Positions 33,570 to 44,406 of a DNA stretch of 64,000 nt are shown here, piece after piece (within the stretch, counting starts at the first letter, position 1; the number at the start of each line of letters is the position of its first letter). Both the position numbers and the translations under genes were made by a program. The stretch comes from an uncultured Candidatus Binatia bacterium (GTDB taxonomy: Bacteria > Desulfobacterota > Binatia > UBA9968 > JAJDTQ01), in assembly GCA_965215605.1 (NCBI GenBank), contig OZ244070.1, positions 1,472,001-1,536,000 on the forward strand, in the 5' to 3' direction. Below the pieces are notes generated by a model. It was not told where the DNA came from. It was given only the letters and a program-made list of their open reading frames with translations, and did no database searches.

Positions 33570-35981
33570 ATGGCGACCTACGTCGGCAAGAGCATCAAGC
33601 GCAAGGAGTCCTTCGACTCCATCCAGGGGAAGAACACCTATATCGGCGACATCGAGGTCCCCGGGATGCTCCATGCCGCCATCCACCGAAGCCCCTACGC
33701 CCACGCCCGGGTGATGCGAGTGGACCTGTCGGAGGCGCTTGAGCAGCCGGGCGTGGTGGCGGCCATGAGCGGCGAGGATGTCCGGCGCCTGTCCCGGCCC
33801 CTGGCGCCCTTCCCCTTCACCCGGACCAAGCCGTACACCAGCGACTACCCACGGGTGCGGTTCGCCGACCACTACTGTCTGGCGGTGGACCGGGTGCGGC
33901 ACGTGGGCGAGGCGGTGGCAGTAGTGGTGTCGGAGGACCGCTACGCGGCGGCGGACGCGGCGGAGGCGGTGCGGGTGGAATACGAGCCCCTGCCTCCGGT
34001 GGTGGACGTGGAGGCCGCGCTGGAGCGGGGGTCCGTGCGGCTCTACGAGGAGTGGCCCGACAACATCCAGTACGAGTTCCGCTTCAGCGAAGGGCCGGTG
34101 GAGAAGCTTCTGGAGGAAGCCCCGGTGGTGATCCGGGAACGCATCGTGCAACACCGGTACACCGGAACGCCCATGGAGCCCCGGGGAGTCATCGCCAGCG
34201 TCGACCAGCGGGACAACCTGCTGACGCTGTGGTCGTCCACCCAGGTGCCCCACGCGCTTCCCAATCTGGTCCTGGAGACCCTCGGCCGCGAGGACCTCAA
34301 GATCCGGGTGATCTCGCCCACCATGGGCGGCGGCTTCGGCATCAAGTGGGCGTTCTATCCCGAAGAGGTGCTGATGCCGCTCTTGTCGCTCCAGCTCAAC
34401 CGGCCGGTGGGCTGGCGGGAGAGCCGCAGCGAGCACATGGTGGCGTCACACCATTCCCGGGCCCAGGTGGACCACGTGGAGGCGGGCTTCGACCGGGCCG
34501 GCCGCATCACCGCCCTCAAGACCCATGTGATCGTGGACTTGGGCGCCGCCTACCCCAGCGGCGGCACCTCCCTGGCCTTCGTCACCGCCAACTTCATCCC
34601 CGGGCCCTACCGTGTCGACAACTACGCCACCACCTCCTTCGGCGTGGTCACCAACAAGACCGCCGCCGGCCCCCACCGGGCCAACGGCAAGGCCGAGTCC
34701 AACTTCATCATGGAGCGGGTGATGGACCGGGCCGCCCTGGAGCTGGGTTTGGGCAAGGACGAGATCCGGCGCCGCAACCTGATCCAGCCCCACGAGTTCC
34801 CCTACACCTGCGTTACCGGGTCCACCTACGACAGCGGCGACTACCCCGCGTGCCTGCGGAAGGCGCTGGCGGAGGCGGACTACGCCGACCTGCTGGCGGA
34901 CCGGGACCGGTGCCGCCTGGAGGGGCGCTACCGGGGCGTCGGCCTGGCGTTCCTGCTGGAGCCCCTGAGCTCGCTCCGGCCCAATGCCTACAACGCGGGC
35001 TACGAGACTGTGACGGTCCGGGTGGACCCGGTGGGCAAGGCCTGGGTGTTCTCGGGCGACGTGAACATGAGCATGAGCCACAAGACCACCCTGTCCCAGG
35101 TGGTGGCGGACGAGCTGGGCGTGCGCTTCGAGGACGTGCACGTGTTCGAGGGCGACAGCGCCCTGGTCTCGGCGTCCAGCGGGTCCTACGCCAGCCGGTT
35201 CTCGACGGTGACGATTTCGGCGGCCATCAAGGCCAGCCGCGCCGTGAGGACAAAAATACTGGCGATCGCCGCGCACTCGCTCCGGACCCATCCCGAGGCC
35301 CTCGAATGTACCGGCGGCGTGATTCTGGGCCGGGACAAGCCGGGCGTTGCCCTCACGGTCAAGGAAGTGGCCAACATCGCCTACTACTCCATCAACCAAC
35401 TGCCGGGGAACATGGATCCGGGCCTGCACGACACCCACTATTTCATCAATCCCAACACCAGCTTCGAGCCGGACGCCAAGGGCCGGACGTCGAACTTCTC
35501 GACGTTCCCCTACGCCGCTCACGTGGCCTACGTGGAAGTGAACGCCGCCACCGGCGAGACCACGATCCTCCGGTATCTTACCGTGGACGACTCCGGCAAC
35601 ATGGTGAACCCGATGATCGTCGACACCCAGATCACCGGCGCCATCTCCCACGGCGTCGGGGGCGCGTTTCTGGAAGAGCTGGTGTATGACGAGCAGGGAC
35701 AGCTCCTGTCCGGAAACTTCGCCGACTACCTGATCCCGTCCATGGCGGAGATGCCGGACCTGGAGATCCATCACATGGTGACGCCCATGCCCTTCACCCC
35801 GGGCGGGTTCAAGGGAGTTGGGGAGATCGGCGCCATCGGCCCGCCGGTGGTGCTGGCCAGCGCGATCGAGGATGCGCTGGCGCCGCTGGGGGTCAAGATC
35901 ATGAGTCTGCCGCTCAAGCCGGAGAACATCTGGCGGGCGATACACGGAAAGCGCAAAGCAACAACAGGAGAGCGGACATGA
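33570..35981 (+). CDS. Xanthine dehydrogenase-family molybdopterin-binding large subunit (CoxL-like, not form I CODH)
   Basis: 'RSPYAHA', 'SSTQVPH', 'MGGGFGIK', 'YDSGDY', 'GGFKGVGE'; active-site loop reads 'GPHRANGK'. Confidence 0.9.
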   Translation: MATYVGKSIKRKESFDSIQGKNTYIGDIEVPGMLHAAIHRSPYAHARVMRVDLSEALEQPGVVAAMSGEDVRRLSRPLAPFPFTRTKPYTSDYPRVRFADHYCLAVDRVRHVGEAVAVVVSEDRYAAADAAEAVRVEYEPLPPVVDVEAALERGSVRLYEEWPDNIQYEFRFSEGPVEKLLEEAPVVIRERIVQHRYTGTPMEPRGVIASVDQRDNLLTLWSSTQVPHALPNLVLETLGREDLKIRVISPTMGGGFGIKWAFYPEEVLMPLLSLQLNRPVGWRESRSEHMVASHHSRAQVDHVEAGFDRAGRITALKTHVIVDLGAAYPSGGTSLAFVTANFIPGPYRVDNYATTSFGVVTNKTAAGPHRANGKAESNFIMERVMDRAALELGLGKDEIRRRNLIQPHEFPYTCVTGSTYDSGDYPACLRKALAEADYADLLADRDRCRLEGRYRGVGLAFLLEPLSSLRPNAYNAGYETVTVRVDPVGKAWVFSGDVNMSMSHKTTLSQVVADELGVRFEDVHVFEGDSALVSASSGSYASRFSTVTISAAIKASRAVRTKILAIAAHSLRTHPEALECTGGVILGRDKPGVALTVKEVANIAYYSINQLPGNMDPGLHDTHYFINPNTSFEPDAKGRTSNFSTFPYAAHVAYVEVNAATGETTILRYLTVDDSGNMVNPMIVDTQITGAISHGVGGAFLEELVYDEQGQLLSGNFADYLIPSMAEMPDLEIHHMVTPMPFTPGGFKGVGEIGAIGPPVVLASAIEDALAPLGVKIMSLPLKPENIWRAIHGKRKATTGERT

Positions 35982-36841
35982 GCGAGACAGGGAACGGTTT
36001 CACGGAACGGGCGACGCGGGAGCTGGCGCGGGTGTCGGCGGTCTTCGCCGCGGGCGAGGCGGAGATCGCCGACACCTATTTCAACTGGGACCAGCGGGAC
36101 CGGGAAAAGGAGGTCCTCTGGCTCACCAAGCAGGCGGGCCGGGAGATCGAGAGCACCTTCACGGGCCTGAAGGAGGTCGTCGAGAAGGTGGGCGGCGACT
36201 TCATGAAGTCGGACCAGTACTGGGTCGACCGGTGGGGCGGCGACGTCGACCGGAACTGGCTGGAGGAAAACCTCTGGCGCACCAAGCAGGAGCTCAACCA
36301 CGGCAACCGGTGCGTGGACATCATCGAATGGCTCACCGGCGAGCCCGTGGACATCAAGGAGGTGGTGCGCCGCTACAATCGCTGGACTCCCGATCCGTCG
36401 CTGCCCGACATGAAGGAATGGGTGCGGCTGGCGGAGGTGTTCCGGGAGCAGGAGGCCCGCCAGGAACCCTGGGCGCGGCTCATCAACTCCCAGGGACTGC
36501 TCGAGGGCGGCAGTTGCGGCCTGTTCTACGCAGCATCCCAATTGAGCGGCAGCGAGCTCAACGACCGCCTTTCCGAGGCCTTCACCGTGGTGCTCGACGA
36601 CGAGCGCGGCCACGGGCCCGCCAACATCTACCAGATCGCCGACGCCTTCACCACGCAGGAGGCGGTGGACGGCGCCAGGGGCCTGATGGTGGAGCGGGGC
36701 ATCCAGCGTCTGCGCATGCGCAACGAGCAGTTCAGCTTTCCCATCGACGAGGCCCGCATCCAGGACATCGCCGCCGGCAACATCGGCCTGGACGTCACCA
36801 AGGCCATCTGGGGCGAGACCTTGGCGAAGTTCATCGACTAG
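35978..36841 (+). CDS. Ferritin-like (putative di-iron carboxylate) protein
   Basis: ATGA overlap with the Mo subunit gene; helical sequence with two ExxH motifs ('QELNHG', 'DDERGHG') and intervening Glu-bearing helices ('GREIE', 'LLEGG'). Confidence 0.6.
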   Translation: MSETGNGFTERATRELARVSAVFAAGEAEIADTYFNWDQRDREKEVLWLTKQAGREIESTFTGLKEVVEKVGGDFMKSDQYWVDRWGGDVDRNWLEENLWRTKQELNHGNRCVDIIEWLTGEPVDIKEVVRRYNRWTPDPSLPDMKEWVRLAEVFREQEARQEPWARLINSQGLLEGGSCGLFYAASQLSGSELNDRLSEAFTVVLDDERGHGPANIYQIADAFTTQEAVDGARGLMVERGIQRLRMRNEQFSFPIDEARIQDIAAGNIGLDVTKAIWGETLAKFID

Positions 36842-36860
36842 CACCAAACGCCACCGCACC

Positions 36861-36894
36861 GCCGAACTCAGAGGTATTCCTCTGACCCGTCGGC
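36861..36894 (+). terminator. Stem-loop downstream of the ferritin-like gene (possible terminator, no U-tract)
   Basis: gccga..tcagagg-tatt-cctctga...tcggc. Confidence 0.35.
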
Positions 36895-37117
36895 AAAGAC
36901 GTGCGCAGGTTCGATCGACGTCCTTTTCGCTCCCCTGTGCGAAGTCACGGACGATGCGCCGACCGAAGGGGTCATGGCAGTTGATGAGATAGACAGACTC
37001 CGTCGCTTGCCTGCTCTTCCGATCGCTCAAGGGCAACAGTAAAACGTGCTAAAAAGGGAGTCCGAGGTACCGCTTGCCTGCCGAAATGATTCCTATGAGA
37101 GGTGGAGGCACGTAACC

Positions 37118-39907
37118 ATGAGCGGCAGCACAAAAGACGAGTGGCCGTATCCGGGTTCGCGCTGGTGGAAATTCGATTTCCACACACATACACCCGCTTC
37201 TTTTGATTTTGCGGAGCCGGGACTGTCACCCGAGGGTTGGCTACAGTGCTACATGGCGGCGGGTGTCGACTGCGTGGTCGTAACCGATCACAACAGCGGC
37301 TCGTGGATCGATAAGCTCAGGCATGCTTATCAACAGATGAAACAGCAGGCGGCGTCAGAAACCGGACATGGTGGATTTCGTGAACTGACACTCTTTCCGG
37401 GCGTAGAACTTTCAGTGAACGGCGGTTTCCATCTGCTGGCGATACTCGATCCAAGTGCCGACACGGCCCAGGTTGACACCCTGCTGGGACAGGTGGACTA
37501 CGACGGCACCAAGGGTCAAAGCGACGGCGTCACACGTAAGGGGGCTGCGGAGGTCGTCAAGGCTGTGTTGAACGCCGGAGGCATCCCGATTCCGGCCCAT
37601 GCTGATGGTGAAAAGGGGTTGTTGCGCCTGAAACAGGGGAATTCCGGCGCACTCGACGCCAATTCCGTCCGTCAAGTTCTGGATGAACCCGGTATTCTGG
37701 CAATGGAGGTGGTGGATACAAGGAACCCGAAACCTGAAATCTATCACGAACGTAAGTTGTTGTGGTCGGAAGTCCTCGGCAGTGATTGCCATAGGTTGCA
37801 GGGCGAATTCAGTCCTGGTTCCCAGTACACTTGGGTGAAGATGGCAGAGCCTTCACTTGAAGGGCTCCGGTTAGCTCTGTTGGACGGCAACGGCGTTTCG
37901 ATTCGGCGTAGCGATGAGGGTGGGTTCGAGCCGTTCAAGACGCCCGCGCACTTCATTACCGGTTTGCAGGTTCGAAGCGCCCGCTTTATGGGGAACGGAG
38001 TCCCCGAGACCGTAGCGTTGAGTCCCTTCTACAATGCCGTGGTCGGCGGCCGCGGCACGGGCAAGTCCACCCTCGTATGTGCGATCCGGTTGGCGTATCG
38101 TCGCGAGTCTGAACTCAAGAGACTCAGCGAAGACGCAGACCCGCGTCGTCACCTCGAAGCTTTCGTGAAACCAATCAAAGGCCGTGACGGTGGCGGCGCG
38201 CTACGGGAGAACACCGAAATTAGGGTCGAATTGCTGCGCGAAGGTATCGTCCACAGGCTAAGGTGGCGGCCGGATGGAACAGGAGATGTTGTCGAAGAAT
38301 GCGACGCTGATGGCCAGTGGCGATCCTCTGCCAGCCAGGCAATCCATGCCGAGCGCTTTCCAATCCGTTTGCTGTCACAGGGACAGATTGCAGCAATGGC
38401 GGGCGACAATCGCCAAGCCCTACTCGATATTATCGATGATGAAGCACACGTTGCTGCGCAGCATCGGACCTTCGACGAAGCAAAGAACACATACCTCTAC
38501 CAACGAGCTAGACTCCGTGAACTCGAAGGACGCTTGGCTGGTCGGCAGGAGTTGCAGCGCAAGCTCGATGAGGTGTCTCGCAAGCTCGAGACTTTGACTC
38601 AATCACACCATGCGGAGGTCCTGAAAGCCCACCAACAGGCGACGAGACAGCGACGGGAAATCGACGCCACATTAGAGCAGTTGAAGGAGATACCTGAACG
38701 GATCCAGACATTCGCGCAGGATTTGATACTCGACGACTGGCCAGAGGATGTCTTTGATACCGAACTGGATGCCGACGCCTTGGAGTGGCGCCGTGAGGTA
38801 GAGAAGGTACTGTCGGAAGCGCTTGAAGCACTGGCCGAGGCAGGTGGAAACTTGCTCGCTACGACGCAACCTCTTGTTTCACATGATCGGCTCAACCAAT
38901 GGCGCCAACGCGCGGGTCAAGCCCATGCAGCCTATGACGCGCTTCAGGTCACATTGGCGGAGCAGGGGGTGTCCGACCCACGCGTGTTTGGCGATCTCGT
39001 CTTGGAACGGCAGCGTTTGGAAGCACAAGGCAAGGAACTCGAACAGTTGCAGGAGGAGGCAGCGCGGTTGCAAACCGATATTGAGGCTCAATGGCAACGA
39101 GTGTTTTGGGCACGCAAAGCGATAGCAGACGCACGAGCGGCGTTTGTGGACGGTGCATTGGCCGCGAATGCGTTCGTGAAAATGGAAGTGATCCCGTTTG
39201 GCTTTGATGCGCAAGTGATTGAGCGCAGCCTGCGTGCAATGCTGGACGTCGAGGATGAACGCTTCGAGGGCGATCTACTCCCTTTGGTTAACGGTGAGCC
39301 CAAGTCCGGTTTAGTAGTCGAATTGTCGCAAGCAACCGATCATGCGGAGAAGCTCGCTGAAGTGAAGCAGAGGATGATCGACGTTGACGAAAGGCTCGGC
39401 GGTCACTTCCGAAACTACCTGAAGCGCCGGTTGGAAAGGCCGGAGTTTGCCGATCACCTCCGTTGCTGGTTCCCCGAAGATGACCTGCGCATCGAATACA
39501 GCCGTGGCGACAACCAGTGGGCGCCGATCCGAGAAGGCTCACAGGGCCAACGCGCGGCGGCTCTGCTGGCGTTTCTGCTCGCATTTGGAGACGAACCCTT
39601 GGTGCTCGATCAACCGGAAGATGACCTGGACAATCACCTGATCTACGACTTGATCGTACGCCAAATTCGCGCGAACAAGCTGCGCAGGCAACTCATCATT
39701 GTAACGCACAACCCCAATGTCGTGGTGAATGGGGATGCCGAGATGGTCCACGCGCTGGATTTTAGTTCGGGCCAGTGTCGCGTCATTCAGCGTGGCGCGC
39801 TTCAGGACACGTCAGTGCGTGAGGAGGTGTGCCGAGTCATGGAAGGCGGTCGTGAAGCGTTCGCACGCCGCTGGGCGCGTCTGGGAAGAGACCCCAAGTA
39901 TGTTTGA
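37118..39907 (+). CDS. PHP phosphoesterase + SMC-like ABC ATPase (TrlF/Ppl-like), putative defence protein
   Basis: PHP motifs 'WWKFDFHTHTPAS', 'TDHN', 'GVE', 'AHAD', 'GSDCH'; Walker A 'GGRGTGKST'; long coiled coil; signature 'SQGQR'; Walker B 'LVLDQPEDDLD'; 'VTHNPN'. GGAGG RBS; codon usage unlike flanks. Confidence 0.85.
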   Translation: MSGSTKDEWPYPGSRWWKFDFHTHTPASFDFAEPGLSPEGWLQCYMAAGVDCVVVTDHNSGSWIDKLRHAYQQMKQQAASETGHGGFRELTLFPGVELSVNGGFHLLAILDPSADTAQVDTLLGQVDYDGTKGQSDGVTRKGAAEVVKAVLNAGGIPIPAHADGEKGLLRLKQGNSGALDANSVRQVLDEPGILAMEVVDTRNPKPEIYHERKLLWSEVLGSDCHRLQGEFSPGSQYTWVKMAEPSLEGLRLALLDGNGVSIRRSDEGGFEPFKTPAHFITGLQVRSARFMGNGVPETVALSPFYNAVVGGRGTGKSTLVCAIRLAYRRESELKRLSEDADPRRHLEAFVKPIKGRDGGGALRENTEIRVELLREGIVHRLRWRPDGTGDVVEECDADGQWRSSASQAIHAERFPIRLLSQGQIAAMAGDNRQALLDIIDDEAHVAAQHRTFDEAKNTYLYQRARLRELEGRLAGRQELQRKLDEVSRKLETLTQSHHAEVLKAHQQATRQRREIDATLEQLKEIPERIQTFAQDLILDDWPEDVFDTELDADALEWRREVEKVLSEALEALAEAGGNLLATTQPLVSHDRLNQWRQRAGQAHAAYDALQVTLAEQGVSDPRVFGDLVLERQRLEAQGKELEQLQEEAARLQTDIEAQWQRVFWARKAIADARAAFVDGALAANAFVKMEVIPFGFDAQVIERSLRAMLDVEDERFEGDLLPLVNGEPKSGLVVELSQATDHAEKLAEVKQRMIDVDERLGGHFRNYLKRRLERPEFADHLRCWFPEDDLRIEYSRGDNQWAPIREGSQGQRAAALLAFLLAFGDEPLVLDQPEDDLDNHLIYDLIVRQIRANKLRRQLIIVTHNPNVVVNGDAEMVHALDFSSGQCRVIQRGALQDTSVREEVCRVMEGGREAFARRWARLGRDPKYV

Positions 39908-41168
39908 CAACCCACTAGAGCTACTGGACGCGATTCGGCTGGGCGAAAGCAGCCGTCTGGAGTTCAAAGAAGTGCGCTTCGCTGGCGGTAAAGTCCGGGG
40001 ACCCAGCCGCGACGCGCTCGCAGACGGGCTGGCTGCTTTCGCCAACAGTCATGGTGGTGTGTTTGTCCTCGGGGTTGAGGACAAGACTCATGAAGTGACT
40101 GGTGTTCCAGAGGAGCGCCTGGATGCGGTCGTGGATCTGGTCCGCGAAGTGTGCTCGGATTCCATCGATCCCCCCATTGAAGACGTCGTTCTGGAGCGGC
40201 TCCGGTTGCCTTCAAGCTCTGGTGAGTCATTGGCCGTTGTAAGGGTAGAAGTGCCGCGCAGCCTGTTTGTCCATCGAAGCCCGGGCGGTTTCATGGCTCG
40301 GACGACCGATTCAAAACGCCCTATGTCCCCGGAGCGGCTTGCCCGTCTCTTTCAGCAACGCAGCCAGACGCGTCTCATCCGCTTCGACGAGCAGGTCGTC
40401 GGGACCGCCCGAATGGACAATCTGGAGCCACGCTTGTGGCAGCGGTTCCGCACGTCCCGCTCCGACGACGACCGGGACGATTTTCTCAACAAGCTTGGTA
40501 TGGTACGTGCCGACGAGGACGGCACGGTGAAGCCAACGGTGGCCGGCATCTTGATGGCCACCGAAGATCCGCGCCTGTGGTTGCCCAATGCGTATGTCCA
40601 AGCAGTCGCGTATCGTGGAGACGTTATCCGACCCTCGACGGTTGACGCCTACCAACTAGACGCCGCGGATGTGACAGGACCTCTCGACCATCAGATTGTC
40701 GAGGCCTGTCGATTCGTGGCTAGGAACATGAAGACGGCGGCATACAAGGAACAAGGACGCACGGACAAACCACAATATGAGCTAACCGCCGTGTTCGAGG
40801 CTATGGTGAATGCAGTAGCCCACAGGGACTACTCGATTCATGGCTCCAAGGTAAGACTGCGACTATTCGAGAACCGCCTGGAGATATATTCCCCCGGAAC
40901 CGTTCCTAACTCGTTGACCATTGAGAACCTCCGCTACCGGCAGTCAGCGCGGAACGAGGCCATTTGCAGCCTTTTGGCCAAGTGTGCAGTCCCTGACGGG
41001 GCTTGGTTGACGACGGACCGACGGAACATTATGGACAAACGCGGTGAAGGAGTGCCGCTTATCCTGGATCGTAGCGCAGAGTTGTCCGGCCGGGATCCCG
41101 AGTACCGGCTGATTGACGATGCAGAACTCCTTCTGACGATTTTCGCCGCAAGTGAGTATACTCTCTAG
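39900..41168 (+). CDS. Schlafen/AlbA_2 domain + HATPase_c_4 (RecG C-terminal-like) protein
   Basis: 'GESSRLEFKE', 'AAFANSHGGVFVLGVED', 'EAMVNAVAHRDYS', 'RLEIYSPG', 'RNEAI', 'DKRGEG'; overlaps the upstream gene by 8 nt. Confidence 0.82.
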   Translation: MFDNPLELLDAIRLGESSRLEFKEVRFAGGKVRGPSRDALADGLAAFANSHGGVFVLGVEDKTHEVTGVPEERLDAVVDLVREVCSDSIDPPIEDVVLERLRLPSSSGESLAVVRVEVPRSLFVHRSPGGFMARTTDSKRPMSPERLARLFQQRSQTRLIRFDEQVVGTARMDNLEPRLWQRFRTSRSDDDRDDFLNKLGMVRADEDGTVKPTVAGILMATEDPRLWLPNAYVQAVAYRGDVIRPSTVDAYQLDAADVTGPLDHQIVEACRFVARNMKTAAYKEQGRTDKPQYELTAVFEAMVNAVAHRDYSIHGSKVRLRLFENRLEIYSPGTVPNSLTIENLRYRQSARNEAICSLLAKCAVPDGAWLTTDRRNIMDKRGEGVPLILDRSAELSGRDPEYRLIDDAELLLTIFAASEYTL

Positions 41169-41191
41169 CTCTCGTAAATCCTGAGAACGGC

Positions 41192-41974
41192 ATGGCATCC
41201 TGCATCGACCTCGAAGCCAAGGACGGCGTTGCGTTCATCACCCTGAACAGGCCAGAGCGGCTCAACGCCATGAACGAGGAGATGTGGGCGGAGCTGGGGC
41301 GGGTGTGGGACGCGTTCGCGGCGGATCCGGCGGTTCGGGTGGCGGTGGTGAGCGGTGCCGGCGAGCGGGCGTTCTCCACCGGCATGGACCTGAAGGAGCG
41401 GGCGGTGGCGGGCGACCCCCGTGCGCGGGAGTTCTGGACGTCGGCGCTGGCCCGGGACCCGGGGCGCCGGGAGCCGGTGTGGAAGCCGATGATCGCGGCG
41501 GTGCACGGGTACTGTCTCGCCGGCGGCTTCGAGATCGCCCTTTCCTGCGACATCCGCATCTGCAGCGACGACGCCTCCTTCGGCCTGCCGGAGATCAAGC
41601 GCGGTTTCTTCCCGGGCAGCTCCGGCACCGTGCGGCTCCCCCGCCTCATGCCCTTGGGCAGGGCCCTGGAAATGCTCTACACCGGCGAGTCCATTTCCGC
41701 GGACGAAGCCTTCCGCTGCGGCCTGGTGAATCGGGTGGTGCCGCGGGACGAGCTGTTGCCGGCGGCGGAGAAGCTGGCCCGGTCCATCGCCGACGGGCCG
41801 CCGCTGGCGCTGCAGGCGGTCAAGGAGGTGGTGCTGCGGAGCCTCGACCTGCCGTTGGCCGACGCCATCCGCTTCGAGGCCGGGTTCCGCGCCATGGTGG
41901 GCGGTACCGAGGACGCCGGCGAGGGCCCCCGGGCCTTCAGCGAGAAGCGGCAGCCGCAGTACAAAGGGCGCTAG
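41192..41974 (+). CDS. Enoyl-CoA hydratase/crotonase family protein
   Basis: 'ITLNRPERLNAM', 'AFSTGMDLKE', 'KPMIAAVHGYCLAGGFEIAL.CD', 'FGLPE', 'AFSEKRQP'. Confidence 0.92.
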   Translation: MASCIDLEAKDGVAFITLNRPERLNAMNEEMWAELGRVWDAFAADPAVRVAVVSGAGERAFSTGMDLKERAVAGDPRAREFWTSALARDPGRREPVWKPMIAAVHGYCLAGGFEIALSCDIRICSDDASFGLPEIKRGFFPGSSGTVRLPRLMPLGRALEMLYTGESISADEAFRCGLVNRVVPRDELLPAAEKLARSIADGPPLALQAVKEVVLRSLDLPLADAIRFEAGFRAMVGGTEDAGEGPRAFSEKRQPQYKGR

Positions 41975-41994
41975 TGTCGCGGGAGAGGACCCCC

Positions 41995-43623
41995 ATGTAC
42001 CAGGACCTCCGGGAATATCTCCAGTTGCTGGACCGCCAGGGCCTGCTCATGCGGGTAGCCGCCCCGGTGGACAAGGACACGGAGTTGCATCCGCTGGTGC
42101 GCTGGCAGTTCCTGGGATTGCCGGACCACCAGCGCAGGGCGTTCCTGTTCGACAACGTGACCGACGCCAAGGGCCGGCGGTACGAGACCCCGGTGGTGGT
42201 GGGAGCGCTGGCGTCCAACGAGGCCATCTACGCCCTGGGCATGGGCTGCGAGCCCGGCAAGAGCTTCGAGAAGTGGTCCGCGGCGGTGGCCGCGCCACTG
42301 GCGCCGGAGCTGGTGGACACCGGCCCGGTCAAGGAGGAGATCCACGTCGGCGACGGTCTCCTGGAGCACGGCGGCCTGGACGAATTCCCGGTGCCCATCT
42401 CGACGCCGGGGTTCGACAACGGCCCCTACTTCACCGCCTGCCACTGGATCACCAAGGACCCGGAGACCGGCATCCGGAACGTCGGCAACTACCGCGGCCA
42501 GATCAAGTCCCCCGCAAAGACCGGCGTCTACCTCATCAGCGCCCAGCAGGATCTGGCCATCCACTGGAACAAGGCCAGCGCCCTGGGGCAGCCCCTCCCC
42601 GCCGCCGGGGTCATCGGCGCGGTGCCCTGCCTCTCCTACGTGGCGGTGCAGAAGATCGCCTACGGGGTGGACGAACTGGGCGTGGCCGGCGCCATCCTGG
42701 GCCGGCCTATGGAACTGGTCAAGTGCGAGACCGTGGACCTGGAGGTGCCGGCCAACGCGGAGATCGTCATCGAGGGCTACATCCGCACGGATCTGCTCGA
42801 GCCCGAGGGCCCCTTCGGCGAGTCCCACGGCTACATGGACCCGCGCAGCCTGAGTCCGGTGTTCGAGGTGACCTGCATCACCCACCGGAGGAACCCCCAC
42901 TACGTGGGCGTGCTGAGCCAGGTAACGCCCAGCGAGAGCAGCAAGATCAAGCACCGGGGCTGGGAGTCGCTGGTGCTGGACCACCTGCGCAACCACTGCA
43001 GCCTCAAGAGCGTGGTGCGGGTGGGCATGCACGAGCCCTTGGTGAACCTGCGCCAGTTCGTGGTGGTGCAGATGCGCAAGACCCACAAGCTCGAGCCCTG
43101 GCAGGCGATGATGGCGGTGCTGGGTTTCCGCTACGACCTCGGCAAGGTGGTGATCGCGGTGGACGACGACATCGACCCCGAGAACTTCGCAGCGGTCAAC
43201 TGGGCCATCTGCCACCGCTCGCAGCCGCACAAGGACGTGCGCATCATCGAGGGCCGCCAGACCGTGCATTCGCCCATCAACCTGGTGCGCATGCACGGCC
43301 ACGCCGGCGACTACGACAGCGAGGACTCGTCACTCCTCATCGACGCCACCAAAAAGGCCGAGTTCCCGCCGGTGTCGCTGCCCACCCGGGAGTACATGGA
43401 GCGGGCGCGGAAGCTGTGGGACGAACTCGGCATGCCGGAGCTGAAATACGGCAACCCGTGGCACGGTTATTCCCTGGGCCTGTGGCCGTCGGAGCTCGAC
43501 GAGGAAGCGGCCCTGGCGGTCAAGGGCGAGCACCACCGCACCGGCGCCAAGCTGGACGAGCGCGCCGTCCCGGTGGAGCGCGGCGAGCGCCTGCAGGACG
43601 TGCAGAAGCGATGGAAGCCGTAG
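41995..43623 (+). CDS. UbiD family prFMN-dependent (de)carboxylase
   Basis: 'MYQDLREYL', 'KDPETGIRNVGNYR', 'VPANAEIVIEG', 'EGPFGESHGY', 'VIAVDDDID', 'LIDAT'. Confidence 0.9.
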   Translation: MYQDLREYLQLLDRQGLLMRVAAPVDKDTELHPLVRWQFLGLPDHQRRAFLFDNVTDAKGRRYETPVVVGALASNEAIYALGMGCEPGKSFEKWSAAVAAPLAPELVDTGPVKEEIHVGDGLLEHGGLDEFPVPISTPGFDNGPYFTACHWITKDPETGIRNVGNYRGQIKSPAKTGVYLISAQQDLAIHWNKASALGQPLPAAGVIGAVPCLSYVAVQKIAYGVDELGVAGAILGRPMELVKCETVDLEVPANAEIVIEGYIRTDLLEPEGPFGESHGYMDPRSLSPVFEVTCITHRRNPHYVGVLSQVTPSESSKIKHRGWESLVLDHLRNHCSLKSVVRVGMHEPLVNLRQFVVVQMRKTHKLEPWQAMMAVLGFRYDLGKVVIAVDDDIDPENFAAVNWAICHRSQPHKDVRIIEGRQTVHSPINLVRMHGHAGDYDSEDSSLLIDATKKAEFPPVSLPTREYMERARKLWDELGMPELKYGNPWHGYSLGLWPSELDEEAALAVKGEHHRTGAKLDERAVPVERGERLQDVQKRWKP

Positions 43624-43656
43624 TGTCCTGGCTCGCGGATACGTGCACCCGGCGCG

Positions 43657-44406
43657 ATGGAGCTTGACGGCACCCTGGCCCTGGTGGCCGCGGCCATCTT
43701 CTTCGCGGGCTTCGTCAAGGGCGCCGCCGGCATGGGCTTTCCGCTCATTGCCACCCCCATGCTGACGCTGCTGCTCGACATCCGCATGGCCATCGTCGTG
43801 CTGGTGCTGCCCAGCGTGGTGATGGACCTGAGCCAGATCTTTCGCCACGGCGTCCCCACCGCCATCTTCCGGCGCTTCTCGTCCATGTTCCTGTTCGCGT
43901 TGGCGGGCGTGTTCCTCGGCACCTGGGAGCTGACCCAGCTCCCCCTGTGGGTGTTGAACCTCATCCTGGGAACGGTGGTGATCCTCTTCGCGGGTTCCGG
44001 GCTATTCTCGTTCACCCTCACCACCTCGCCAAGGGCGGAACCGGTCATGTCCCCGGTCATGGGGTTCGCCGGCGGCTTCTTCCTGGGACTGACCAACACC
44101 ATGGGTCCGGTCATGGCCCTCTATCTGCACGGGTTGAAACTCGACAAGGCCGACTTCGTGAAGGCCATCTCCACCGCCTTCATCATGGCCAAGTTCTGGC
44201 AGATCGTGGCCATCTCCACCTGGGGCCTGTTCACCATCGAGGCCATGAAGCTCTCGCTGTTCGTCACCGCGTTCATTCTCGTGAGCTTCTACCTGGGCCT
44301 GAAGGCGCAGGACCGGATCCGCCAACAGACGTTCAACCGGGGCATCCTGGCGCTGCTGATCTGCACCGGGCTGATGCTGGTCTACCGCGCCCTGAACGCC
44401 CCGTAG
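43657..44406 (+). CDS. TauE/SafE (TSUP) family membrane transporter
   Basis: 249 aa hydrophobic; 'AGFVKGAAGMGFPLIA', 'GGFFLGLTNTMGP'. Confidence 0.85.
   Translation: MELDGTLALVAAAIFFAGFVKGAAGMGFPLIATPMLTLLLDIRMAIVVLVLPSVVMDLSQIFRHGVPTAIFRRFSSMFLFALAGVFLGTWELTQLPLWVLNLILGTVVILFAGSGLFSFTLTTSPRAEPVMSPVMGFAGGFFLGLTNTMGPVMALYLHGLKLDKADFVKAISTAFIMAKFWQIVAISTWGLFTIEAMKLSLFVTAFILVSFYLGLKAQDRIRQQTFNRGILALLICTGLMLVYRALNAP

Follow-up and report, generated by a model that had tools for sequence, protein, structure and literature searches.

Ppl and the bacterial Schlafens are two protein families recently characterized in phage defense, and the temperature restriction locus (TRL) of Photorhabdus laumondii DJC is an operon of three genes, trlR-trlF-trlG (Hapeshi et al. 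2020, bioRxiv 10.1101/2020.06.02.129163 = PMC7554251). Here, we report a trlF-trlG cassette in a 64,000-nucleotide (nt) stretch of DNA, hereafter the window, from an uncultured Candidatus Binatia bacterium (GenBank assembly GCA_965215605.1; contig OZ244070.1, positions 1,472,001 to 1,536,000, forward strand). The cassette (36842-41191, 4.35 kb) was acquired horizontally and sits at a junction of a catabolic operon that the genus uses as a slot for small defense and toxin-antitoxin cassettes. On balance we regard this trlF-trlG cassette in a defense slot as probably an anti-phage module of the abortive-infection type.

The first TRL gene, trlR, encodes a putative regulator of 79 amino acids (aa); trlF is annotated as a histidinol phosphatase; and P. 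laumondii TrlG, misnamed RecG, carries an AlbA_2 domain at residues 14-128 and an HATPase_c_4 domain at residues 298-365 (PMC7554251). Growth at 36°C was permitted by point mutations, stop codons, or an insertion sequence (IS) in trlG or by deletion of the operon; all temperature-tolerant mutants described lay in trlG, the larger trlF yielding none, and TRL transcription rose on temperature upshift (PMC7554251). Ppl is described as a 3'-5' exonuclease on single-stranded DNA that has PHP and nucleoside triphosphatase (NTPase) domains, both inhibited by nucleoside triphosphates (NTPs), that responds to the 3'-OH ends left by phage homing endonucleases, and that is toxic when RecBCD is disabled (PMC12904381, PMC13648713); in Escherichia coli it acts as a single gene (PMC12904381, PMC13648713, PMC11482910). 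Bacterial Schlafens protect through tRNA cleavage (PMC13056530 and its preprint), and 69.6% of 5,930 of them lie within 10 kb of a defense gene, fusions to a HisKinase part being the commonest class (34%; Perez Taboada et al., Nat Microbiol 2026, PMC13056530). Seven Schlafen constructs were assayed in that study, of which two were protective, both with non-HisKinase architectures. The Schlafen-GHKL module of the SLFN-pAgo proteins forms an ATP-driven tetramer that cuts tRNA in abortive infection, and no conserved partner is named for these proteins in the available parts of the report (Kuzmenko et al., 10.64898/2026.05.29.728809). Finally, Schlafen-HisKinase ribonucleases (RNases) with a winged helix-turn-helix (wHTH) part are reported in close linkage with the core loci of BREX and its related systems, in at least 1017 taxa (NAR 2026, PMC12839542).

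The genes of the cassette and their immediate surroundings in the window were as follows.

37118-39907, + strand: trlF (gene 1), 929 aa
39900-41168, + strand: trlG (gene 2), 422 aa
36842-37117, + strand: leader of the insert with the trlF ribosome-binding site at its end, 276 nt, GC content 0.576
41169-41191, + strand: right junction, from the trlG stop codon to the start of the enoyl-CoA hydratase gene, 23 nt
35978-36841, + strand: left flank, host gene for a 287-aa protein, the last before the insertion point (no Pfam hit; GC content at third codon positions [GC3], 0.931)
41192-41974, + strand: right flank, host enoyl-CoA hydratase gene (ECH_1, 3.3e-63; GC3, 0.935)

The pair is the trlF-trlG part of the Photorhabdus TRL operon, here without trlR, because gene 1 passes the TrlF equivalog and gene 2 has the architecture of TrlG. 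A preliminary description made from the sequence alone had delimited the two open reading frames (ORFs) correctly but had not recognized a named two-gene system, and on that point it was wrong: TrlF scored 591.3 bits, its residues 13-923 aligning with profile positions 2-944, with the NCBIfam equivalog model NF045780, "TrlF family AAA-like ATPase," whose cutoff is 350 bits; this is the name that the NCBI pipeline would give it and that its homologues bear. The reported overlap of the two ORFs was found as described, 8 nt long (39900-39907). The trlF gene starts at an ATG 9 nt past a GGAGG, and the N-terminus agrees with that of homologues.

Composition sets the insert apart from its host. In 500-nt windows the GC content was 0.56 to 0.61 across 37000-41000 versus 0.64 to 0.73 in the flanks, and GC3 was 0.624 in trlF and 0.655 in trlG versus 0.857 to 0.940 in nine flanking genes. 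The earlier hand counts (31/60 GC in the line starting at 38461, 47/60 in that at 34861) were exact, and the lower GC content with A/T-ending codons, noted there for a two-gene insert, is borne out by codon usage unlike that of the host (GC3 of 0.62 to 0.66 against 0.86 to 0.94). Pfam hits of the flanks likewise agreed with the placement between co-oriented catabolic genes, which upstream encode an AMP-dependent ligase, a class II aldolase, xanthine-dehydrogenase-family subunits (FAD, 2Fe-2S, and molybdopterin), and the 287-aa protein, and downstream the enoyl-CoA hydratase.

The insertion point could be followed through the genus. The left-flank gene had an orthologue in 28/28 genus genomes (82 to 98% identity), and in 17 of the 27 relatives the site was empty, with an enoyl-CoA hydratase gene (84 to 95% identity) starting 23 to 36 nt past it; in one such genome (G014) the flanks were 98% and 95% identical to those of the window. 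Two relatives had gaps of 132 and 190 nt at the junction, and a single one (G020) held the same cassette (TrlF, 94%; TrlG, 95%), so that the comparison with relatives for an empty site, proposed in the preliminary description, came out in favor of an insert. The remaining seven carried other inserts with GC contents of 0.52 to 0.60, as listed.

G006, 3.2 kb: type II methyltransferase and a 509-aa ORF
G003, G011, and G012, about 1.9 kb (gap of 2.8 kb in G012, including a TrlG remnant): HEC-01
G023, 3.4 kb: 803-aa N6-methylase and a PIN protein
G007, about 1 kb: DUF900 hydrolase
G010, 0.9 kb: MazE-like antitoxin

HEC-01 consists of an AAA_21 ATPase and a DUF4276 protein (PADLOC, 2e-179 and 1.6e-80). 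Between the HEC-01 cassette and the enoyl-CoA hydratase gene of G012 lay a 276-aa TrlG remnant (L053:14248-15075, minus strand) that matches residues 152-419 at 54% identity and retains the GHKL but not the Schlafen domain; it looks like what is left of a trlF-trlG cassette that once filled the slot. In G011 (L052, gap 889-2821) the HEC-01 ATPase was split into ORFs of 138 and 258 aa, probably because a frameshift has made it a pseudogene or because of misassembly; in G003 and G012 it is intact at 389 aa.

Homology to the empty sites ended at the stop codon of the left-flank gene. No direct or inverted repeats were found at the junctions, and there was no tRNA gene within 25000-50000 of the window and no integrase; insertion by an integrative element was rejected on these grounds, and we infer that cassettes are swapped through recombination in the conserved flanks. 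In public metagenomes, contigs of two runs match the window without a difference through both junctions; they may derive from the source sample and are therefore not independent support. A contig from another study joined 36839 to 41192 with 27 other letters between them, the empty site in a relative, and one from a third study (4,175 nt) covered 37266-41227 with 263 differences (about 93% alike).

The reading frames of trlF and trlG overlap, and the genes are nearly always found side by side. TrlF/Ppl proteins form over 3,400 clusters. Scanning one genome per species yielded 636 relatives, the best 80 of which gave 78 loci at 44 to 93% identity, a sample biased toward closer relatives that includes loci of the culturable hosts Pseudomonas, Methylococcus, and Marinobacter and spans Gamma- and Betaproteobacteria, Binatia, Latescibacterota, Acidobacteriota, Chloroflexota, Actinomycetota, Spirochaetia, Myxococcota, Bacteroidota, Verrucomicrobiota, a cyanobacterium, and others. 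One locus (L085) held too little DNA, leaving 77 that could be evaluated, and in 67 of these a TrlG homologue directly followed TrlF (66 intact and one IS-split), in line with the adjacency that the preliminary description had asked to see. The intact TrlG began between 4 nt before and 66 nt after the last TrlF codon (66/78 loci), and 18 of these 66 pairs have the 8-nt overlap. Often TrlG is the better conserved of the two proteins (71% versus 47% for TrlF in L103). In the split locus (L128:7837-10537) an IS bearing transposase-like ORFs of 105 and 283 aa left a 143-aa N-terminal and a C-terminal piece of TrlG, reminiscent of the temperature-tolerant Photorhabdus clone whose trlG was hit by IS66.

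Within the genus, each of the five full-length TrlF homologues (G020, G010 twice, G008, and G006) was followed by TrlG at 50 to 95% identity. The two full pairs of G010 have TrlF proteins 48% and 43% identical to that of the window, and the same genome has a third, divergent TrlF-like gene elsewhere (C1:2055481-2057460). A branch of TrlF (G022) so divergent that its tblastn alignment reached only about 390 of the 929 residues (30 to 44% identity) still passed NF045780 (512 bits) and was followed 10 nt on by a 458-aa protein with AlbA_2 and HATPase_c_4 domains. Among 400 evenly drawn Gammaproteobacteria, 8 genomes had 9 genes of the Ppl/TrlF type, none over the Ppl cutoff; seven of the nine had a TrlG-like gene downstream (one of these in two pieces, one 26% identical), and the two unpaired genes (L142 and L144) included the most Ppl-like of all (L144, 614 bits). 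A rule that Ppl works solo and TrlF in pairs can thus be checked on one gene only (L144), because none passed the Ppl cutoff. The window's own genome (G000, contig 1) has just one TrlF-type gene and five more AlbA_2 genes (L009, L010, L012, L013, and L014; frames of 304 to 532 aa).

Comparing TrlF without TrlG (n = 10) and paired TrlF (n = 65) gave no clear interface signal: where conservation among the paired proteins was 90% or more, the unpaired set retained the residue at 0.88 to 0.89 in the C-lobe, C-tail, and coiled coil versus 0.97 to 0.98 in the PHP domain and N-lobe, and D540 was the sole position that differed strongly. Complex prediction with TrlF residues 278-500 and 640-929 and full TrlG scored 0.00 and gave no verdict.

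Defense genes surround the pair in many of the related loci, a point that the preliminary description had proposed to check. Taking the longest flanking ORF on each side of the 78 loci (73 upstream and 72 downstream proteins), 32/73 upstream neighbors matched a PADLOC model at E ≤ 1e-10 (HmaB, 11; PglX, 7; DUF499, 2; ZorD/DpdE-like helicases, 2; and a type I S subunit, several methylases, a type IIG enzyme, HerA, PDC-S01, and others), and 21/72 downstream neighbors did so at E ≤ 1e-40 (HmaC, 8; PglZ, 7; DUF1156 methylase, 2; and BrxL, a type III restriction endonuclease, PDC-M28B, and HEC-06). The pair lay between HmaB and HmaC in eight loci, between PglX and PglZ in five, and between DUF499 and DUF1156 in two; TrlF alone took the place between PglX and PglZ in L136, where a BrxL-like start appears further on. 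TrlF genes without TrlG also occurred inside other defense operons (L108 and L114, also L107), in L108 and L114 after a PglZ-like 343-aa ORF and before an ORF of about 1070 aa.

TrlF is related to Ppl over its full length and joins a PHP-type nuclease to a coiled-coil ATPase of the SMC/Rad50 kind. It matched the NCBIfam Ppl equivalog NF042955 (Ppl_antiphage) over its full length at 539.5 bits, under the cutoff of 1000, and the PADLOC Ppl model at 6.4e-139 (residues 13-922); PADLOC matches to mad3, AriA, LmuB (5.8e-9), and GajA ATPases were far weaker. Its parts were assigned as follows.

37154-37927, + strand: PHP-type metal-dependent nuclease domain, residues 13-270 (motifs and family profiles)
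37949-38452, + strand: ATPase N-lobe with Walker A, residues 278-445 (motif and Pfam)
38453-39157, + strand: antiparallel coiled coil, residues 446-680 (AlphaFold2 model)
39176-39463, + strand: mixed alpha/beta insert leading from the coiled coil to the C-lobe, residues 687-782 (secondary structure of the model; no family)
39482-39904, + strand: ATPase C-lobe and conserved C-terminal helices, residues 789-929 (motifs and Pfam)

The PHP metal motifs, Walker A/B, and ABC signature reported for gene 1 are intact and invariant in 40 aligned homologues, namely the PHP-type ligands D20, H22, H24, D57, H58, E97, H161, D223, and H225; G310, G311, R312, G313, G315, K316, and S317 of Walker A (G310-S317); and, in the C-lobe, the signature S808, G810, and Q811, the stretch D831-D838 (Walker B, D831-D835), and T863, H864, and N865. 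The C-terminal residues M908, E909, G910, and G911 were invariant as well. The Pfam PHP model had no match to TrlF at E ≤ 0.1, so the PHP assignment rests on the motifs, on the NCBIfam CehA/McbA metallohydrolase match (2.2e-8, residues 15-254, below its cutoff), and on the Ppl and TrlF profiles; the Pfam PHP model matched the divergent TrlF homologue weakly. Pfam matches to AAA_23, SMC_N, and ABC_tran began at about residue 298, and AAA_21 matched the C-lobe at 7.9e-12. The AlphaFold2 model (predicted local distance difference test [pLDDT], 88.0; predicted template modeling score [pTM], 0.76) showed an alpha/beta domain of alternating strands and helices at residues 15-265, a C-lobe at 789-893 followed by two conserved C-terminal helices, and the long coiled coil of the preliminary description at 446-680, with helices at 446-473, 476-494, 499-535, 552-588, 590-615, and 622-680; the coiled coil was the least conserved region of TrlF (mean top-residue frequency, 0.50). 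Foldseek placed the heads of MukB, Smc, JetC, RecN, and Rad50 at the top of its matches to this model. By sequence, the closest solved structure in the PDB was AriA of PARIS (7.7e-6; residues 772-877, C-lobe only), and no structure of Ppl or TrlF was found in that search.

TrlG is a stand-alone Schlafen-GHKL protein ("Schlatpase," pSlfn-HisKinase type) with a conserved catalytic site and no helix-turn-helix (HTH), comprising two domains.

39945-40328, + strand: Schlafen (AlbA_2) nuclease domain, residues 16-143 (SLFN_AlbA_2, 1.7e-13, Pfam)
40767-41114, + strand: GHKL-type ATP-binding domain, residues 290-405 (HATPase_c_4, 3.6e-18 at residues 315-405, Pfam)

No Pfam HTH family matched, and the chain ends 17 residues past the GHKL domain, confirming the AlbA_2 and HATPase_c_4 domains without an HTH that had been read from the ORF. 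NCBIfam families gave no match; in PADLOC, the N-terminal Schlafen-GHKL part of a pAgo model matched at 1.3e-17. The Schlafen site, Ex4ExK with an Asp, is kept in nearly all homologues (E16, 69/69; E21, 69/69; K23, 68/69; D61, 66/69), and its Ex4ExK stretch aligned to that of chain 5yd0_A, which carries two labels, Schlafen 8 and SLFN13 N'-domain. The GHKL residues E300, N304, R309, D310, G315, P332, G333, R351, N352, R381, G382, and G384 were invariant in 34 homologues. With the AlphaFold2 model (pLDDT, 86.7), Foldseek returned DIP2311 (3lmm, 2.6e-19), then the N-domains of SLFN5/13/11/14/12 and GHKL kinases (PDK and HK853).

In the mechanism that we propose, TrlF, as a Ppl-like protein, would detect free DNA 3' ends and/or a drop in NTPs during infection and degrade DNA, and TrlG would be the growth-arresting effector, its active oligomer cutting tRNA so that translation stops. 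TrlF might restrain or gate TrlG instead of being required for its activation, in the way that AriB is kept in check by AriA in PARIS, which is the most speculative step; heat would then mimic the trigger of TrlG release in Photorhabdus. TrlF is unlikely to be an obligatory activator of TrlG, because all Photorhabdus mutants lay in trlG and none in trlF, which is more than twice as long. The anti-phage proposal of the preliminary description holds up in the adjacency, neighborhood, empty-site, and codon-usage comparisons; its division of the pair into sensor and effector, like the abortive-infection role itself, is one that we infer.

A stronger form of the proposal can be held only tentatively, namely, that the pair is an obligate two-protein immune device in which a Rad50-like DNA-end sensor with a PHP exonuclease checks a Schlafen tRNase and frees or licenses it upon phage DNA ends or NTP collapse. 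Such a device would wire DNA damage sensing to translation shut-off, its human counterpart being the axis of DNA damage, SLFN11, and tRNA cleavage, and heat misfiring of the switch would explain the arrest of Photorhabdus at 36°C.

The same genes could instead be two independent single-gene defense proteins, a Ppl-type nuclease and a stand-alone Schlafen, that share an operon through defense-gene clustering without coupling. E. coli Ppl works singly (PMC12904381, PMC13648713, PMC11482910), single-gene Schlafens protect alone, TrlF occurs alone in a minority of loci, and the pair is itself embedded in larger systems; adjacency in 67 of 77 loci from a wide range of phyla, an 8-nt overlap shared by 18 of 66 intact pairs, and pairing even in the divergent TrlF branch go far beyond ordinary island clustering, however, and the frequently better conservation of TrlG also speaks against independence. 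HisKinase-type Schlafens were indeed assayed singly, yet both protective constructs were of other types (PMC13056530). We therefore judge uncoupled genes unlikely. Heat-triggered arrest is a kind of side effect known from auto-active abortive systems, and this counts against reading the pair as a stress or growth-control module that imposes physiological arrest under an abiotic cue such as heat. That reading would take the Photorhabdus locus at face value, since temperature restriction is the sole published trlF-trlG phenotype and transcription rises on upshift (PMC7554251), but it fits poorly with a patchy, horizontally moved distribution (1/27 relatives at the site, 8/400 Gammaproteobacteria), with a slot that otherwise holds restriction-modification, HEC-01, and toxin-antitoxin cassettes, and with embedding in BREX and Hma loci, the signature of defense genes; we consider it quite unlikely.

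A selfish addiction cassette, with TrlG as toxin, TrlF as neutralizer, and post-segregational killing, would account for loss-of-function mutants arising only in trlG (PMC7554251), for PIN and MazE-like genes in the slot of relatives, and for the two damaged copies of TrlG, the G012 remnant without a nuclease domain and the IS-split gene in L128. A 929-aa nuclease-ATPase with fully conserved motifs would, however, be an implausibly costly antitoxin, and loss of the entire operon does Photorhabdus no harm (PMC7554251), which makes addiction very unlikely as the explanation; toxin-antitoxin-like logic and defense are in any case not exclusive. An accessory of DNA repair or recombination, an Mre11-Rad50 analogue with a regulator, would suit a nuclease joined to a Rad50/SMC-like ATPase, the structural matches to Rad50, RecN, and SMC heads, and the common misannotation of TrlG-type proteins as RecG-like (PMC7554251). 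Since the pair is non-core, foreign in composition, missing from most relatives, and found in defense contexts, and since the partner has a conserved Schlafen RNase site, we give this idea hardly any credence.

Several points weigh against an anti-phage abortive-infection module as well. No phage-protection experiment on TrlF-TrlG was found in the literature searched, which excluded subscription papers and supplements, and the published phenotype concerns temperature (PMC7554251). The argument for gating is suggestive only, because the Photorhabdus mutants come from few lineages and their independence is limited. Ppl biochemistry is carried over to TrlF by homology only, at 539.5 of the 1000 bits that the equivalog demands, and the Ppl mechanism itself (Xu et al., Mol Cell 2026) is taken from review summaries. 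TrlG was likened to P. laumondii TrlG by architecture rather than by sequence, so that their equivalence stays presumptive. Simple co-activation is not obvious, because assembly of Schlafen-GHKL needs ATP and Ppl is inhibited by NTPs. TrlF had no TrlG in 10 of the 77 evaluable loci, so it can stand alone; the neighbor counts stand without a matched random-gene control; and no promoter of the cassette's own was detected in the leader with a simple sigma-70-like scan.

Further observations concern the leader and flanks. A simple promoter and terminator scan found two promoter-like sites, against 1.3 expected, and zero in the leader. The leader sequence was not found in the 27 other genus genomes, including G020 with the same cassette, where only about 44 nt separate the host gene from trlF. 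The 287-aa left-flank protein had 2 to 6 matches per genus genome, paralogues at 29 to 42% identity, and its gene is part of an acyl-CoA/molybdo-hydroxylase catabolic operon. Past the right flank, a 464-aa ORF on the + strand (42273-43667) had no Pfam hit and a GC3 of 0.42, versus about 0.9 in the genes of this genome, and is overlapped by a 443-aa ORF on the minus strand (41971-43302); the 464-aa ORF is probably not the real frame.

Much of this is already known: the pair is named in print, Ppl and Schlafen-GHKL have been studied, and Schlafen RNases in BREX-type operons are published. A link between TRL and Ppl was not found in the same literature, and the one phenotype published for the near-obligate trlF-trlG pair concerns temperature. 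If the pair is one device, it would supply a mechanism for the growth restriction published for an insect pathogen, would reveal what controls the Schlafen architecture that is commonest in bacteria, and would offer a simple bacterial model in which DNA-end sensing is coupled to tRNA cleavage. The value of the locus lies in a clean natural experiment, the junction being empty in some sister species and filled with trlF-trlG or other cassettes in others; apart from this series, the locus is ordinary.

Among known systems, the auxiliary nucleases of BREX and Hma loci (PMC12839542) include Schlafens with a wHTH, which the TrlG of the window lacks, and the pair sits in a catabolic operon rather than within BREX or Hma; the terms Ppl, TrlF, SMC-like, and PHP are absent from that paper. 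Membership of RloC was considered and rejected, as was that of Lamassu, the LmuB match being weak (5.8e-9) and the LmuA and LmuC models matching neither protein. The logic of PARIS may be alike, in that an ABC/SMC-type ATPase, AriA, works with a tRNA-targeting nuclease, AriB, in abortive infection, but TrlF differs from AriA in having its own nuclease and a long coiled coil. Membership in PARIS was rejected, since there is no DUF4435/Toprim AriB and only the ATPase core of TrlF resembles AriA.

TrlG shares with the pSlfn-HisKinase proteins, or Schlatpases, an AlbA_2 domain with Ex4(E/D)xK fused to a PF13749 GHKL domain, and that class is associated with defense islands. In the window it is a stand-alone protein of 422 aa with no pAgo, Ig-like, DUF262, or HTH part, and it is tied to a TrlF gene; the terms PHP, Ppl, and operon are absent from PMC13056530. 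TrlF resembles E. coli Ppl (Gao_Ppl) in full-length profile similarity, in the catalytic residues of the PHP part, and in a coiled-coil ATPase of the Rad50/ABC type, and departs from it in falling under the Ppl equivalog cutoff (539.5 versus 1000 bits) and, unlike the single-gene Ppl, in being overlapped by a Schlafen partner, with pairing in 67/77 evaluable loci. From the TRL operon the cassette differs in its host, in its genomic site, and in missing trlR: the 276-nt leader (36842-37117) has no + strand ORF longer than 35 aa, and no conserved small upstream ORF was found among the 78 related loci, where clusters of short upstream ORFs were antisense artifacts of PglX or HmaB genes. It agrees with TRL in a large PHP/"histidinol phosphatase" ATPase followed, in the same order and on the same strand, by an AlbA_2 and HATPase_c_4 protein of about 400 aa, gene 2 being likened to P. 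laumondii TrlG by this architecture and by its conserved linkage to TrlF-family genes, and in a patchy, horizontally acquired distribution.

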